From the NCBI GenBank assembly GCA_038999725.1, contig JAWBWS010000001.1, positions 193,713-257,712 of the forward strand: DNA of 64,000 nt, written 5' to 3'. Shown here piece by piece: positions 27,001 to 33,000 of this stretch. Source of the DNA: Candidatus Aenigmatarchaeota archaeon (GTDB taxonomy: Archaea > Aenigmatarchaeota > Aenigmatarchaeia > CG10238-14 > SCSR01). Every line of letters begins with the position of its first letter. Position 1 is the first letter of the stretch. The position numbers were made by a program.

Positions 27001-30000
27001 TGGTTCACCCAAATGTTTCGGTACCGGTATATAACTCACATGAATGTAAATGCATTTTTCATTTTCCATTTTCATCTGTCTTGCCGCCTCTATGAAAATT
27101 TGGTTTTCATAATCTCCAACAGTTCCACCAATTTCAACAAGGACAAAATCTGCTCCAGATTTTTTTGCAATTTCTTTTATCCTTGTTTTAATTTCATCAG
27201 TTACATGGGGTATCATTTGTACAGTTTTTCCCAAAAATTTACCTTCCCTTTCTTTTTTTATAACACTCCAGAAAATTTGGCCAGAAGTTATGTTGTTTTC
27301 TTTTGAGACGTTTATATCCAAAAACCTTTCATAATGGCCTAAATCTTGATCAATTTCACCCCCATCTTCAGTTACCCAAACCTCTCCATGTTCAGTTGGT
27401 CTCAGAGTTCCCGCATCATAATTTAAGTAACCATCAATTTTTATTACTGTAACTTTAAAACCGCGAAATTGGAGAAGCTTTCCTATAGAGGCAGTTGTTA
27501 TGCCTTTGCCAAGACCGGAGAGTACACCACCAGTTATGAAAATATAATGGGTCTGCATAAATTATTGTGTTATTTTTGAAATTTAAAACTAATCCTGCAA
27601 CTTTATTTCTATGTGTACACCTTGAGGGATGTTAATTCTCATTATTTGCCTCAAAGCTCTTTCATCTGCTTGTACATCTACAACACGCTTGTGAATTCTA
27701 AGTTCCCATTTATCATAAGTGGCATTTCCATGGCCACACCCATCACCACAAGGGGTTTTGAGTGTTACAACTCTCATTCTTTTTGTTGGTAAAGGAATAG
27801 GACCTTTAGTTAAAACACCAAACTTTTTTGCAATTTCCTTTATTTCATGGCAAATTCTATCTAATTCTTCTGGATTTTTTCCAGACAGCTTTATTCTTGC
27901 AACTTGCATAACATCACTTAACTTTTCTTTATTTTGGTTTAATTATATTTAAATTCTTTTCCATTGTTGGAATAAGAAATCTACAAGAAAAGATGGTACA
28001 ACAGCAAATAAAAACTATAATTTTAGATTCGTGGAAAAGAGAGAAAAAAAGAATGGGATTCAAAATTTAACTATTTCGCTTTAACTACATCCAAGCAAAT
28101 TCCTGCAGCTACAGTCATTCCCATATCTCTTATGGCAAATCTCGCCAATTCAGGAAAATCTGCTTGCCTTTCTATAACCATTGGCTTTGTTGGAACAACC
28201 CTAATCTTTGCAGCATCTCCAGTCTTAATGAAGTCTGGGTGCTCCTGAACCACCGCCCCAGTTCTTGGATCAATCTTTGCAATTATCTCTTCTATTCTAC
28301 AAGCAACACTAGCAGTGTGACAATGGAATACAGGTGTATAACCAGGACTTATCACACTAGGATGTTGCAAAACAATTATTTGAGCAATAAACTCCTTTGC
28401 AACAGTTGGTGGATTGTCAGGATGTCCAGCAACATCTCCTCTTCTCAACTGCTCTTTTGCTATACCACGAACATTAAAACCAATATTGTCTCCAGGCTTG
28501 GCTTCCGGAATCTGTTTGTGGAAAATTTCTATTGATTTAACTTCACCTTTGACCCCTGCTGGTTCAAATACAAGGGTATCATTGACTCTAAGTATACCAG
28601 TTTCAACTCTACCTACAGGAACGGTACCAACTCCAGAGATTGAATACACATCCTGAATTGGTATTCTCAACGGCTTGTTTATAGGTTTTTCCGGCTCTTT
28701 TATTACTGCATCCAATGTCTCAACAAGTGTTCCACCTTTGTACCAAGGCATGTTGTCAGATTTCTTGACAATATTGTCTCCATAATAAGCTGAAACAGGA
28801 ACAAATGGAATTTCTTCTACTTTGAAGCCAATTGTCTTGAAAAGCTTTATAGCTTCTTCTTTAACTTCATTAAATCTTTTTTCATCGTAATTCACAGTGT
28901 CCATCTTGTTTACTGCTACAATTATTTGATTAACTCCAAGAACCTTTAACAGCCAAGCATGTTCTTTTGTTTGTTCTTGTATACCTTCTCCAGTTTTCCC
29001 TGAAATAACGAATATTGCAGCATCTGCTTGGCTTGCTCCAGTTATCATGTTCTTAACGAAATCTCTATGCCCAGGACAGTCTATAATGGTGAAGAACCAT
29101 TTCTGAGTTTCAAAGGGTCTGTGCATAATATCAATTGTAAGGCCCCTTTCTCTCTCCTCTTTTACAGTATCCATGATAAAGGCAAATTCAAAAGTTTCCT
29201 TCTTAAGTTCAGTCGCAAGTTCTTTCAACTTTCTCAATTCTTCTTCTCTTATAGCTCCACTATCATAAAGCAATCTGCCTATCAAAGTGGATTTCCCTGC
29301 ATCTACATGACCAGCTGTCATTAGGTTAATATTTGGCTTCGCGGGCATTTCACATCCCTTCTAATCTTATTTATCGTCGATATTTAAATATATTTATGTC
29401 TCTGGTTTTGGTACATGTTCAGGAAGACCTTTCCTCTTCCTTATTGCAAGAATAACATCATCTCTAAGGTCTGAGGGAAGCTTTTCGAAAACTGTTTCAA
29501 CCAAGCTGTAGAAACCACGGCCAGATGTTGCAGATTTTAAGCTTGCGTCAAAACCAAACATGTCACTCACGGGCATCTTTGCTAGAACAATGCTTGCTCC
29601 CCTTTCTTCCCTCATATCAAGTATTTGTCCTCTTCTATTTTCAACCTCTCTTATTACTTCACCAAACAAATCTGATGGTACGTCTATTCTTATTACTTGT
29701 TTTGGTTCAAGCAAAGCTGGCTCTGCACGAAGGATACCTTCCATTATGGCATGCCTAACTGCGGGGATTATCTGTCCAGGACCACGGTGAACAGGGTCTT
29801 CGTGCAGCTCAGCATCAACAAGCTTTACCTTTATTTTTGTGCAAGGTTCTTTTGCCAAGGGGCCTTCATCCATCACATTTCTAAAAGCCTCTTTAACCAT
29901 CTCTATTACTTCATTCATGAACTGAATTCCCTTTGTCATATCGATGAGAACATTTTTATTGTGAATGACAATTATGTTCTTTGCTTCATCGTAATCCATC

Positions 30001-33000
30001 CCAAATTTTGAAATCTTTTTAAACATTTCTGTATGTTTGCCTCTAAGTTCTTCTTGGCTTGGGATTTCTCCATCAAGCATAGCCCTATAAACACCATCTT
30101 CTAAGGGTTCGACAACTATGAAAAATCTATTGTGTTTATTTGGAGATTTGCCCTCAATTTGAGGAGAAGTTTTAAAAACAGTTTCTCGGTAAACAACTAT
30201 GGGCTTACTCATCTCTACATCAATTCCCATTTCTTTCAATTTATTCTCAACTTTTGCTTCCAAATGGAGCTCACCAAGACCAGAAACAAGATATTCCCCA
30301 GTTTCTTGATTGATTTTAACTTGAAGAACAGCATCTTCCTTCCCTATTCTCTTTAAAGCATCAACAAGCTTTGGCAGTTCCATCATATTTTTTGGCTCTA
30401 TGGCTTTAGTAACTACCGGCTCGAAAAGATGCTTTATTTCTTCAAAAGGTTCAATAATGGCATCTGGCTCACAAATGGTCTCACCAGTGAATGCATCAGG
30501 AGTTCCCACTATTGCAGCAATGTTACCTGCCGTAACTTCTTCTACAGGTATTCTTAAAATACCTTTGTATACAGCAACTTGCTGTATTTTTTCTTGTTTA
30601 TGCAACCCAATCAAGTAAACGTCTTTACCCTTAAAAACTTTTCCAGAAAAAATCCTAACCGTTGCAACAAATCCCACATGAGGATCAGGCACAACCTTTG
30701 TAACAATAGCAGCAAGCTTCCCATTTGAATCACAAGCCGACATTTGTTTTCCAATTTCTGATTCCAAATCACCTTTCCAAATTTTTGAGAGTCTATACTT
30801 TTGAGCTTCTAAAGGATTAGGCAAATGCTTTATTATCATATCAAGAACAACTTGATGCAAAGGCGCTTTTTTCGATAATTCATCCTCCTTTCCTGCTAAA
30901 ATCAACTCTATGATATCCTTAAAGGTTATCCCAGTTTTTTTCATGTAAGGAATGGAGATGGCCCATCTTTTTGTTGCAGAACCAAAAGCCACGCTACCCT
31001 CCGCAACATTTACAAGCCATTTATCCTTAAATTCTGGAGGAGCGTACTTTTGAATTAAAATGTTTACATCCCTAATAATTTCTTCAAATCTTTTTTGTAT
31101 GTCTGCTGGTGATAATTTTAACTCTTTTATTAGCCTATCAGTTTTATTAATGAAAAGAACTGGTTTAACATATTCTCTTAGAGCTTGCCTAAAGACTGTT
31201 TCTGTTTGTGGCATTATTCCCTCAACAGCGCAAACCAAAACTATTGTTCCATCCACAGCACGCATAGCTCTTGTAACATCCCCGCCAAATTATGGCGAAT
31301 TTACTTCGTATCCACATGGCCGGGGGTGTCAACAAGATTAATCAAAAAGTCCTTGCCCTCGTATTCATGAACCATGCTTACATTTGCTCCATAGATTGTA
31401 AGCTGGCGTCTGCGTTCCTGTTCATCAAACCAAGTGAACATGACTTTCGGCTTTAAATTTGCCGGCCATTTCTTCAGCTAACATTCCTGCTCCTGCCATC
31501 AAATTGTCTGTGAGGGTAGTTTTCCCATGGTGGACATGAGAGCTTGTAGCTACATTGCGAATTCTCGTTGGGTCTCGCATAACCTCTTTAATCCTTTCTA
31601 TCATTTCTTTCTTAGGCAATTATTCACCTCCCTTCAATTGTTTTAAATTAGATTTAAACCCCAGAGTTTATAAGGGTTAATGATTACAAGCTTTAATATC
31701 TTAATTTTTTCTAAAAAAGTTAATATCAATCTTACGGTTTTCTCACTTCTATTTAATTTTAATTGAATATTCTCACAGTCTACCATTTATCTTGCTCCCT
31801 CCGCTTCCCTTTCTATTCTTTCTTTTTCCTTTATTGCCTCACTTTTGCTAGCATCATTGTTATAAGCAGCAACAATTTCATTGACCAAAGCATCGACCAT
31901 GTTTTCTTTTTTTCCAAAAGCTTTCCTATAGGCTGCCTGGACTATGTTTCTCAAAGCCAGATCAACTCTCCTTTGCGGACTTGTTACTACAGCTCTTCTA
32001 ACAATAATTCCACCAAGTTGATAAGAGGTGATTTCTTCTCTCAAAGCAGCGTTTTCTATTGCCCCTACCAAAACAGCTATAGGATTCTTCCCAGTCAACC
32101 TTTCTATTTTTTCAAAGGCTTCTTTCACAATTTTATAGTGTGTGAAAGTTTTGTCTACAGCTCTACCAGAGGTTAAAACATGTTTTTTTCCCCTGTGTCC
32201 CGGGACTCTCAATTTATTTATAAACCTCTCCACCACATTCATCTTTGATTTGTGGAATTGTTGTTGTGTATATTTTCCATCTGTCCTGGGTATGGCAACA
32301 GGGTGAAGATTTATATATTTTTTAAGACCAGGATCTTTCACCTCTATTCCTTCGAAAGACCATTTACCAAACAATTTTATCTCCATATAAAATTACCTTG
32401 TTGGTTTTTGTTTCTTTCCTGACAAAATTTCACTCAAAGCAACACCATTAACTGCAATAACTTTATATTTAATCCCCCACATCGAACCCTTCGGACCACC
32501 TTGAGCGCCACCAATGCTTTCTATCAAAACTTCATCATGTTCGTTAATTATATCTATAGCGCCTTCACCAGGAACATGGGCTGTAACTTGAACATTGTTT
32601 TTTATTAATTGCACTCTTACTGCCTTTATAAGACCAGAAGCCGGTTTTCTTTGTTCAACAGCTCGCTTCTCGATGACAATTCCTCTAGCTTGGGGTGCTC
32701 CCTCAAGGGGGTCTTCTTTCCACAGCTGCAATATTCTTCTCTTGTGGTGAATATCCTTCCATTTGAACTTTTTTCTCACCCTTTTAAGTCTCCTTGCTGA
32801 AAATTCTCCAGGCATTTTTCTCACCTTATCATCAAATCGCTCACATCATGACTTCTTTTAAGTAATTCCTTGAGTATTTTTAAATTTTTTCCATCTCTAC
32901 CAATTATTATTGGTCTTTCGCTCTTTTCTACACTAACCTCAACCACTATTTTACCGTTTTCTTTGTTTATTTTCACACTATTTGATTTGGGTATAAGGTT

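Follow-up and report, generated by a model that had tools for sequence, protein, structure and literature searches.

Predicted bulge-helix-bulge mini-introns interrupt the EF-2 and UPP synthase genes of an Aenigmatarchaeota archaeon

In a tiny hot-spring archaeon of the Aenigmatarchaeota, the gene of an essential translation factor, aEF-2 (EF-2), is broken by two inserts of 13 and 20 nt and the gene of UPP synthase (UPPS) by a third one of 32 nt, all of which, judging from their sequence, are very probably bulge-helix-bulge (BHB) introns or relaxed bulge-helix-loop (BHL) introns that are spliced out of the pre-mRNA. The EF-2 gene occupies positions 29394..31604 on the minus strand of the window, that is, of the whole 64,000-nt stretch of contig JAWBWS010000001.1 that was analysed, and consists of three exons and two mini-introns, with 725 codons after excision. 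An earlier note on this DNA had described EF-2 as a single-copy gene and had reported the same three inserts, whose removal leaves 725 codons in EF-2 and 237 in UPPS; these statements were reproduced, with only one EF-2 match in this genome (G000).

The reading frame of EF-2 is divided on the minus strand into three stop-to-stop pieces (31425-31619, 31301-31477 and 29394-31289), and the deletion of 13 and 20 nt turns them into a single ORF of 725 codons. Exon 1 (31459..31604, minus) holds codons 1-49, of the last one only the first two bases, as counted from the ATG at 31604, while the true start may alternatively be the TTG at 31617-31619, downstream of GGAGGTG. Exon 2 (31310..31445, minus) runs from the remainder of codon 49 through codon 94, and exon 3 (29394..31289, minus) comprises codons 95-725 and the stop. 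In a Pfam profile search, the three pieces matched successive stretches of GTP_EFTU (2-37, 46-81 and 82-187, respectively), with the EFG domains II-V following in exon 3. Intron 1 (31446..31458, minus; 13 nt) may equally be placed at 31445-31457 because of an AAA repeat. Intron 2 (31290..31309, minus; 20 nt) contains an in-frame TAA at which the incoming frame ends, and the outgoing frame opens only past the TAA at the end of the insert. Besides the inserts, no frame defect was found in the 725 codons, and the product is colinear over its whole length with the uninterrupted 725-codon orthologue of a related genome (G007), at 90% amino acid identity and a dN/dS of 0.037; EF-2 is, thus, under strong purifying selection.

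The BHB motif is defined as a 4-bp helix between two 3-nt bulges at the exon-intron boundaries (Kaneta 2018, PMC5829648). Intron 2 has the canonical hBHBh' form, with the motif GTGG at/A cgaa-gtaaa-ttcg CCAT aa/T (slashes at the cuts), a central helix of 4/4 pairs, one of them G.U, and an inner helix of 4 bp. The minimum free energy (MFE) fold of its region (31280..31325, minus) is likewise a BHB, in which an outer helix, a 3-nt bulge, the central helix, a second 3-nt bulge and an inner hairpin succeed one another, GUGG:CCAU being flanked by the bulges AUA and AAU; RNAfold prefers, however, an extra U:A pair that gives a 5-bp central helix and, literally read, moves the 3' bulge by one base. 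The MFE of this region is -20.4 kcal/mol (z -2.5), with 3/200 shuffles equally good. Intron 1, with the motif CGGC aa/A tttaaa GCCG aa/A, combines a central helix of 4/4 with an outer helix of 5 bp and folds in its region (31440..31469, minus) as the relaxed BHL, made up of the outer AUGGC:GUCAU, the central CGGC:GCCG, a single 3-nt AAA bulge and a 9-nt loop in the place of the second bulge (-8.8 kcal/mol, z -1.9; 7/200 shuffles equally good). The cut after the second base of the bulge is reportedly the rule set out by Marck and Grosjean in 2003.

The same register was found in the related genomes. A first set of 14 inserts, 13 of them from EF-2 (G000, G017, G021, G022) and one from the UPPS of G000, showed in every case a 4-bp helix (4/4) whose two strands end precisely 2 nt ahead of the cuts that restore the frame, where 0.88 matches were expected over the 36 protein-equivalent cut positions (background 135/5510, or 2.45%); in all 14, at least one of the two flanking helices, outer or inner, had 3 bp or more. 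At junctions defined by homology and evaluated automatically in G000, G007 and G021, 18/22 had the complete helix (79 options; background 34/1482), as did 13 of the 15 junctions in a further 76 EF-2 loci. The central helix is reduced to 3/4 pairs in three inserts of G007 (two in rtcB, one in cbf5) and in one of L168, and the inner helix is absent from the 13-nt intron and several other inserts. As a positive control, the 16S rRNA of this genome carries an 87-nt insert in which CGGT/ACCG stand in this register and the inner helix is 12 bp long. The exon and intron strands of the helix covary, as GTGG:CCAT versus GTTG:CAAC at the HVD/F site of EF-2, GATG:CATT versus GACG:CGTT at its FD/EQ site, and ATGG:CCAT, ATGG:CCGT and ACGG:CCGT at the DG/NRRW site of UPPS; these are three double changes of exon and intron at shared sites, next to which a U.G intermediate and a C.A that disrupts the pairing (in cbf5 of G007) were observed.

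The UPPS gene lies outside the window, with its 32-nt insert at C1:95128-95159, and its two pieces match positions 1-23 and 26-219 of the Pfam profile Prenyltransf. Its insert in G000 has the inner helix only, the outer exon-exon helix being absent (h1 = 0), as the earlier note had observed, which corresponds to a known relaxed form. Among the relatives, 6/8 UPPS junctions had the 4/4 helix by the automated test, and the remaining two, from the near-identical G001 and G004, had it when the junction was set so as to restore the consensus Ala. A homologous 29-nt insert occurs in G001 and G004 at the same UPPS site as in G000, and the hairpin covaries between G000 and G004; a 52-nt insert said in the earlier note to occur there was not seen in the relatives' UPPS examined.

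Both splicing enzymes are encoded in the genome, in agreement with the earlier note: RtcB at C2:9735-11039 (PF01139, 548 bits) and EndA at C1:86815-87093, with PF01974 (94 bits) and PF02778 in a 188-aa ORF and a full-length alignment with PDB 1a79 (E 1e-28). EndA is represented by one gene of the alpha4-like type, which has, relative to that of M. jannaschii, a basic 6-residue insert between the catalytic Tyr and His. The cutting of relaxed substrates is linked in Kaneta 2018 (PMC5829648) to EndA types besides the plain alpha4, the broad-range enzymes being described there as having an extra specificity loop (L1/L2/L3) or an alpha-beta/epsilon architecture. We infer that cleavage and ligation take place in the cell as follows. 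In the finished transcript, an exon tetramer that stops 2 nt short of the 5' cut would pair with an intron tetramer that stops 2 nt short of the 3' cut, by which each cut site would come to lie within a 3-nt bulge or loop; the single alpha4-like EndA of 188 aa would cleave each bulge behind its second base, and RtcB would then ligate the exons into an mRNA encoding the full-length EF-2.

As far as the sequences indicate, this predicted mechanism is not peculiar to the one genome. By our own tally, about 40 such introns are present in 12 gene families, and in the related Aenigmatarchaeota inserts were found in EF-2 (with up to five of them), rtcB, cbf5, polB, aIF2-gamma and topo VI-B, and further in DNA ligase, RNase HII, S10, S11 and UPPS; they are mostly close to the 5' ends of the genes and 13-33 nt in size. 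The cbf5 gene has a 15-nt insert in G007 and G021, and a tRNA of G007 has a 12-nt intron. The comparisons made in the earlier note proved for the most part correct. The 13-nt EF-2 insert was absent from all 29 other EF-2 loci compared, as claimed before; at the 20-nt site, one of the 29 (G017) has an unrelated insert of 17 nt, where two loci with 18 nt had been reported, and G021 has a 31-nt insert 18 nt upstream. One EF-2 case occurs in a record titled Hadarchaeota, and a confinement of the phenomenon to DPANN is therefore too narrow a claim.

Among the other explanations, the decay of pseudogenes, or sequencing and assembly errors in a metagenome-assembled genome, might be suggested by the splitting of the genes by gene callers, the reduced nature of DPANN genomes and the estimated completeness of 93% for the assembly. 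Such an origin is highly improbable considering the low dN/dS of EF-2 and the lack of any further frame defect, the exact restoration of the frame together with BHB folding for 14/14 inserts, and the homologous introns that other species keep with compensatory changes. Moreover, a 5189-nt contig of another sample (X3) and a 377-nt contig of another study (X4, covering 31176-31552) carry both EF-2 inserts with 0 gaps, so that these are no assembly artefacts, and no near-identical insert-free form was found among the contigs from independent samples. Of the listed sequencing runs that contain this DNA none is an RNA run, and the one metatranscriptome screened, from a related study, gave no match, so that no spliced junction and no excised intron was observed. 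The probability of programmed ribosomal frameshifting or stop-codon read-through across the inserts is lower still, close to nil: 13 nt is 12 + 1, and a +1 shift within the 53-nt frame overlap would yield a product four residues longer, but the 20-nt insert cannot be rescued in this way because TAA stops block the frame that enters it as well as the one that leaves it, with no open path between them. In-frame inserts with stops (15, 21, 24 and 30 nt) would require another mechanism, and none of the 24 uninterrupted homologues has extra residues at these sites.

Translational bypassing, where the ribosome leaves the mRNA before the insert and lands beyond it without any cutting, is known from phage T4 gene 60 and from the byp elements of yeast mitochondria. 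As in gene 60, a hairpin is found together with an early stop in several of the inserts, and the AAA...AAA bounding the 13-nt insert, already pointed out in the earlier note, is indeed a 3-nt boundary repeat. However, matched take-off and landing codons need a boundary repeat of at least 3 nt, which is present at 5/22 junctions only and is 0 nt long at the 20-nt EF-2 insert, the repeated codons being impossible at the other 17; nor does bypassing account for a 4-bp helix between exon and intron at precisely 2 nt from each boundary, for its covariation or for the identical geometry in the untranslated 16S rRNA, and this makes it very unlikely. Somewhat less improbable, though still unlikely, is a real motif that is cut by EndA with regulatory cleavage or decay as the outcome, or an excision by enzymes besides EndA and RtcB. 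In H. volcanii, EndA is described as also processing a BHB of a 5' UTR, by which expression is affected (Schwarz 2020, PMC7714728), and ligation is in our case a presumed step only. Against this stands that exact excision at the BHB sites alone restores the frame and that RtcB is encoded; a full-length EF-2 must be produced, since this essential gene is present in one copy and purifying selection on it is strong. The reading of the inserts as BHB introns, put forward in the earlier note, agreed with the data in every sequence-level prediction that could be tested (register, MFE folds, EndA/RtcB, covariation, selection and other genes).

Several known systems resemble these predicted pre-mRNA introns in part. 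The cbf5 pre-mRNA intron of Crenarchaeota is said to have been dealt with by Watanabe in 2002 and Yoshinari in 2006. It shares with the present ones the position of a BHB within an ORF and the patchy gain and loss, often being annotated as a frameshift (Yokobori 2009, PMC2738675), and cbf5 itself is also interrupted in G007 and G021; it represents, however, one intron in one gene, with an EndA of two subunit kinds, whereas here no fewer than 12 gene families are involved, with up to five introns per gene, sizes of 13-33 nt and a single alpha4-like EndA gene, in Aenigmatarchaeota and one record titled Hadarchaeota. The multiple and non-canonical introns of archaeal tRNA, and the introns of archaeal rRNA (Thermoproteales; DPANN), have the same motif, relaxed forms (HBh', hBH, BHL) and enzymes, and DPANN archaea with a loop-bearing alpha4 EndA are reported in Kaneta 2018 (PMC5829648); the host RNA differs in being here a translated mRNA, so that splicing competes with ribosomes and the cut sites must preserve the reading frame. 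The 5'-UTR BHB intron of H. volcanii HVO_1309, an EndA substrate according to in vitro and circular RNA data (Schwarz 2020, PMC7714728), is likewise located in an mRNA but in the untranslated leader, where no codon is interrupted. In eukaryotes, the HAC1/XBP1 mRNAs also lose a short frame-changing intron by protein-only excision and tRNA-ligase joining (IRE1 with tRNA ligase or RtcB), with the differences that the nuclease is IRE1 and not EndA, the motif is a twin stem-loop and a regulated stress response with a single gene is concerned. The XBP1 intron is 26 nt long. RtcB is named in XBP-1 splicing (PMC8718801). T4 gene 60 and the mitochondrial byps similarly leave a protein intact despite short non-coding gaps in the ORF, apart from their dependence on matched codons and the lack of a predicted BHB.

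In textbooks and reviews up to 2025, as covered by full-text search, the spliced archaeal mRNAs found were the cbf5 ORF and one 5'-UTR case only. With dozens of comparable inserts in further essential genes of the relatives, archaeal mRNA splicing may be far commoner than this single textbook case. Provided that splicing does occur, the processing of mRNAs by the tRNA machinery would be a routine step of gene expression across a whole archaeal lineage, affecting EF-2, aIF2-gamma, ribosomal proteins, DNA polymerase, DNA ligase and the RNA ligase itself, and raising the testable question of the order of splicing and translation in a nucleus-free cell. The annotation of interrupted genes as fragments or pseudogenes would then distort the completeness estimates and metabolic reconstructions of DPANN genomes, and enzymology would be provided with naturally occurring EndA substrates of minimal size (13-20 nt). 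Intron-poor eukaryotes show patterns comparable to the 5' bias and to the patchy gain and loss seen here. It is conceivable, though rather doubtful, that a family of Aenigmatarchaeota, and perhaps other archaea with a loop-bearing alpha4 EndA (e.g., Hadarchaeota), possess a genome-wide layer of mRNA splicing, with BHB mini-introns of 13-33 nt that come and go by the dozens at recurrent 5'-proximal sites of essential information-processing genes, either being mobile at the RNA level, by a reversed EndA/RtcB reaction at any exon tetramer able to pair with the intron tail, or being kept as a checkpoint by which the making of the machineries of translation and replication is tied to the RNA-splicing capacity of the cell. 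With rtcB among the intron-bearing genes, its mRNA would, on such a genome-wide reading, need its own product.

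The reading frame of the gene for elongation factor EF-2 (window 29394-31604, minus strand) is divided into three stop-to-stop pieces. Without two short stretches, one of 13 nt at 31445-31457 (31446-31458 being equivalent) and one of 20 nt at 31290-31309, the gene has an open reading frame of 725 codons, and that of UPP synthase (UPPS), once 32 nt are removed (contig C1:95128-95159, outside the window), has one of 237 codons, both exactly as the earlier note had claimed. By Pfam, the successive EF-2 pieces, the middle exon comprising 45 codons, correspond to positions 2-37, 46-81 and 82-187 of the GTP_EFTU profile, followed by the EF-G domains, and the two UPPS pieces to positions 1-23 and 26-219 of Prenyltransf. 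A TTG at 31617-31619 has the sequence GGAGGTG 5 nt upstream of it (window 31617-31636, minus strand), and the codons from this TTG to the ATG at 31604 show conservation in relatives; the TTG may be the start of EF-2, hence of 730 and not 725 codons.

The motif called bulge-helix-bulge (BHB) consists of a 4-bp helix between two 3-nt bulges at the exon-intron boundaries, and its relaxed forms have one flanking helix missing or a loop in place of a bulge, as described in Kaneta 2018 (PMC5829648). The 20-nt EF-2 insert has the form GTGG at/A CGAA-GTAAA-TTCG CCAT aa/T (slash, predicted cut), with a central helix of 4 bp, two 3-nt bulges, an inner hairpin of 4 bp and an outer exon-exon helix. For the 13-nt insert, an outer helix ATGGC:GTCAT is followed by CGGC aa/A tttaaa GCCG aa/A, that is, by a bulge-helix-loop form, and the UPPS insert, with GTGC aa/A, a 9-bp hairpin and GCAC aa/A, indeed lacks the outer helix, the absence of which had earlier been a cause for doubt. 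The minimum-energy RNAfold structures of the two EF-2 inserts are the same BHB (-20.4 kcal/mol, z -2.5) and bulge-helix-loop (-8.8 kcal/mol, z -1.9) forms, although a fifth U:A pair given to the 20-nt insert would put the 3' bulge into another register and counts against the BHB reading. Cleavage reportedly follows the second bulge base, and therefore the exon 4-mer that stops 2 nt short of the 5' cut should pair with the intron 4-mer that stops 2 nt short of the 3' cut. Every cut pair giving the same protein was listed for the 13 EF-2 inserts of four genomes and the UPPS insert (36 options), and all four pairs of the central helix (4/4) were present in register in 14/14 inserts, versus 0.88 expected from a background of 135/5510 (2.45%) at non-equivalent positions. 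The same register was found in the positive control, an 87-nt insert in the 16S rRNA gene of the source genome (C4:66377-66463, outside the window, bounds by alignment to the related genome G007), where CGGT ag/A and ACCG aa/G flank a 12-bp inner helix. Thus, the register and the folds agree with the BHB introns proposed in the earlier note. The rRNA region of G007 has its own inserts of 55, 56 and 48 nt, located elsewhere.

The origin of the EF-2 inserts by pseudogene decay or as an assembly artefact is exceedingly improbable, being opposed by several lines of evidence. EF-2 is matched once in the assembly (730 kb, 93% complete), in accordance with its earlier description as single-copy; two contigs, one of 5189 nt from a further sample of the same study and one of 377 nt from a second study, contain both inserts gap-free, the 20-nt insert is also covered by a third run, and no near-identical insert-free form occurred among the contigs compared from other samples and studies. 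The spliced sequence is colinear across 725 codons with the uninterrupted orthologue of G007, a genome of the same genus, at 90% amino-acid identity, pS 0.69, pN 0.065 and dN/dS 0.037. The ribosome might instead cross the inserts by frameshifting or hopping. The former has virtually no chance of being correct, since at the 20-nt insert the incoming frame is closed by an internal TAA and the outgoing frame opens only past the TAA at the insert end, and it fails likewise at the stop-containing in-frame inserts. Hopping (translational bypassing) requires repeated boundary codons; a repeat of at least 3 nt is present at only 5 of 22 junctions, and there is none at the 20-nt insert, which makes this route very unlikely.

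We infer from the sequences and modelled structures that the EF-2 pre-mRNA would be spliced. None of the runs listed as containing this DNA is of RNA, and the RNA run X6, a metatranscriptome of a related study, yielded no matching sequence. One gene for the tRNA-splicing endonuclease EndA (188 aa, both Pfam domains) and one for the RNA ligase RtcB were found in the source genome, as previously stated, and it is quite unlikely that EndA cleaves without ensuing ligation or that other enzymes act. This EndA aligns over the full length with the homotetrameric enzyme of M. jannaschii, and a 6-residue basic insert precedes the His that we take to be catalytic. The loop-bearing alpha4 EndAs of DPANN and Hadesarchaea go with heavy disruption of tRNA genes, according to Kaneta 2018 (PMC5829648).

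The relatives with 80-91% EF-2 identity belong to records titled Candidatus Aenigmatarchaeota, from which title the taxon name is taken. In an alignment of 30 loci, five EF-2 inserts were found in G021 (29, 32, 14, 31 and 17 nt), three in G017 (20, 17 and 15 nt) and three in G022 (31, 23 and 31 nt); the inserts of the intron-bearing loci occupy nine sites, and the adjoining S7 and EF-1alpha genes are unbroken. Both EF-2 introns of the source genome are absent from the same-genus genomes G001-G007. Among 76 further EF-2 loci, cases were present in four more records, with 13/15 junctions at 4/4 and one miss due to two adjacent introns chained as one. One of these records, the sequence piece L205, is titled Candidatus Hadarchaeota (non-DPANN), and a 30-nt EF-2 insert follows residue 24 in it (L205:964-993); because this insert has 4/4 in the BHB register, the mRNA mini-introns may reach beyond DPANN. 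A restriction of such introns to DPANN would thus be too narrow a reading. The pairing is also maintained through substitutions: at the EF-2 site HVD/F, exon GTG versus GTT is paired with intron CCAT versus CAAC, at FD/EQ exon GAT versus GAC with CATT versus CGTT, and at the UPPS site DG/NRRW the pairs ATGG:CCAT, ATGG:CCGT and ACGG:CCGT form a series of U:A, U.G and C:G. The hairpins of the homologous UPPS intron in the source genome and G004 differ by paired changes, whereas one change in cbf5 of G007 disrupts a pair. The FD/EQ and HVD/F introns of G017 (L014) share the first 7 bases (AGGCTTT) and similar GGC...GCC hairpins, with different 3' tails each matching its own exon; such likeness may reflect an intragenic intron duplication or chance. 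Besides, EF-2 open frames of 1212-1235 aa occur in 7/59 genomes (G008, G036, G042, G049, G050, G053 and G057), and in L021 and L028 the alignment diverges just ahead of the P-loop threonine; these long frames are probably inteins, in a region also hosting the mini-introns.

The orthologues of the source genome, G007 and G021 were compared genome-wide by ungapped tblastn chaining, which replaced gapped tblastn because the latter bridged the 45-codon middle exon and missed the EF-2 breaks; the names of interrupted genes were checked on the intact orthologues of the source genome. In the source genome (511-515 pairs), only the two EF-2 inserts and that of UPPS were found. G007 (517-521 pairs) has two 19-nt inserts in rtcB, at YG/FPIGG and GIG/FD (L034:12344-12362 and L034:12429-12447; G007 C1:32344-32362 and 32429-32447), a 21-nt, TAG-containing one in polB (L052:12597-12617, contig C4 of G007) and a stop-containing 15-nt one in cbf5 at GTLD/P (L058:1131-1145). 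In G021 (373 pairs with source-genome queries, plus G007 queries), the inserts other than those of EF-2 are in topo VI-B (24 nt), aIF2-gamma (22 nt, at the P-loop), UPPS (16 nt), S10 (30 nt), S11 (14 and 22 nt), DNA ligase (31 nt, at KxDG), RNase HII (19 nt, at DEAGRG) and, at sites shared with G007, polB (23 nt) and cbf5 (15 nt, L071:10500-10514). The gene cbf5, which in Crenarchaeota is the classical bearer of an intron, is interrupted here in two Aenigmatarchaeota at one and the same site. Over the three genomes, 18/22 automated junctions had 4/4 among 79 options (background 34/1482), those short of it being both rtcB and the cbf5 junctions of G007 (3/4) and one of 73 nt in polB that is doubtful. 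The UPPS site DG/NRRW is occupied in G001, G004, G021, G022 and G050, and YGA/KKF in the source genome, G001 and G004. UPPS in the relatives reached 4/4 in 6/8 automated tests, the misses being the copies of G001 and G004, which are near-identical; there the MAFFT gap placement gives Val, and one 3 nt downstream gives Ala, the consensus residue, together with a 4/4 helix. In total, about 40 distinct introns were counted, 36 with 4/4 and four with 3/4, and the putative mini-introns in protein genes are a lineage-wide phenomenon. In the rtcB inserts, the inner hairpins lie flush against the 3/4 central helix; if they are spliced, the ligase mRNA requires the ligase for its own expression. Further upstream in polB of G007 (about L052:12785-13070), a region of about 240 nt that contains a stop and then another ATG appears to split the gene into two ORFs, which is a different kind of interruption from the BHB insert.

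In the EF-2 tree of 30 loci, the four intron-bearing genomes do not form a clade and four changes are needed, which fits repeated loss or repeated gain; the same was described for cbf5 introns in Yokobori 2009 (PMC2738675). All 9/9 EF-2 sites fall within the initial 14% of the protein, and 18/22 distinct sites of all genes in the first quarter. The EF-2 sites exceed random whole-gene positions in conservation (8/10000), but within the first 140 residues the excess does not reach significance (960/10000), and therefore the robust signal is the 5' location rather than conservation as such. Its cause could be 3'-end loss, the cost that unspliced mRNA imposes when translated or the N-terminal position of GC-rich motifs. 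The exon helix strands are G/C-rich in a genome of 34-36% GC, and this may explain why catalytic motifs rich in Gly, Ala and Asp harbour the introns.

In the full-text literature searched outside subscription journals, the descriptions were confined to the pre-mRNA intron of cbf5 and the BHB intron in the 5' UTR of HVO_1309 (Schwarz 2020, PMC7714728), so that the novelty beyond cbf5 claimed earlier has the latter alone beside it within this literature; unconfirmed predictions of mRNA introns in other genes are mentioned, after a 2006 book chapter, in Yokobori 2009 (PMC2738675). A structure-only scan of the source genome (4-bp helix, flanking helix, ORF rescue) gave 5745 candidates versus 5450-5681 with the register shifted by 1-3 nt, and is as unspecific as had been remarked. 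Among the in-frame stop-free inserts (11 in the source genome, 12 in G007), BHB geometry was found only in the 16S rRNA insert and in one all-A/U 18-nt case, probably by chance. The gapped tblastn splits at C2:120300-120800 and C2:113850-114260 of the source genome proved not to be introns but antisense strands at gene boundaries and an indel of 1 nt. Three G021 junctions lacking BHB geometry were left out of the intron tally, namely the 73-nt polB one (3/4, poor alignment), an 11-nt one (0/4, spurious alignment) and a 35-nt one in an rRNA-like ORF. The ARAGORN tRNA introns of at least 10 nt had the 4/4 register in 1/23; as the boundaries are unreliable in these multi-intron tRNAs, this intended positive control carries no information and does not weigh against the BHB reading. 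ARAGORN places at window 48618-48716, on the plus strand, a tRNA of 99 nt whose anticodon has four bases, and in its intron mode it predicts in the source genome many 12-13-nt tRNA introns, also of unreliable boundaries.
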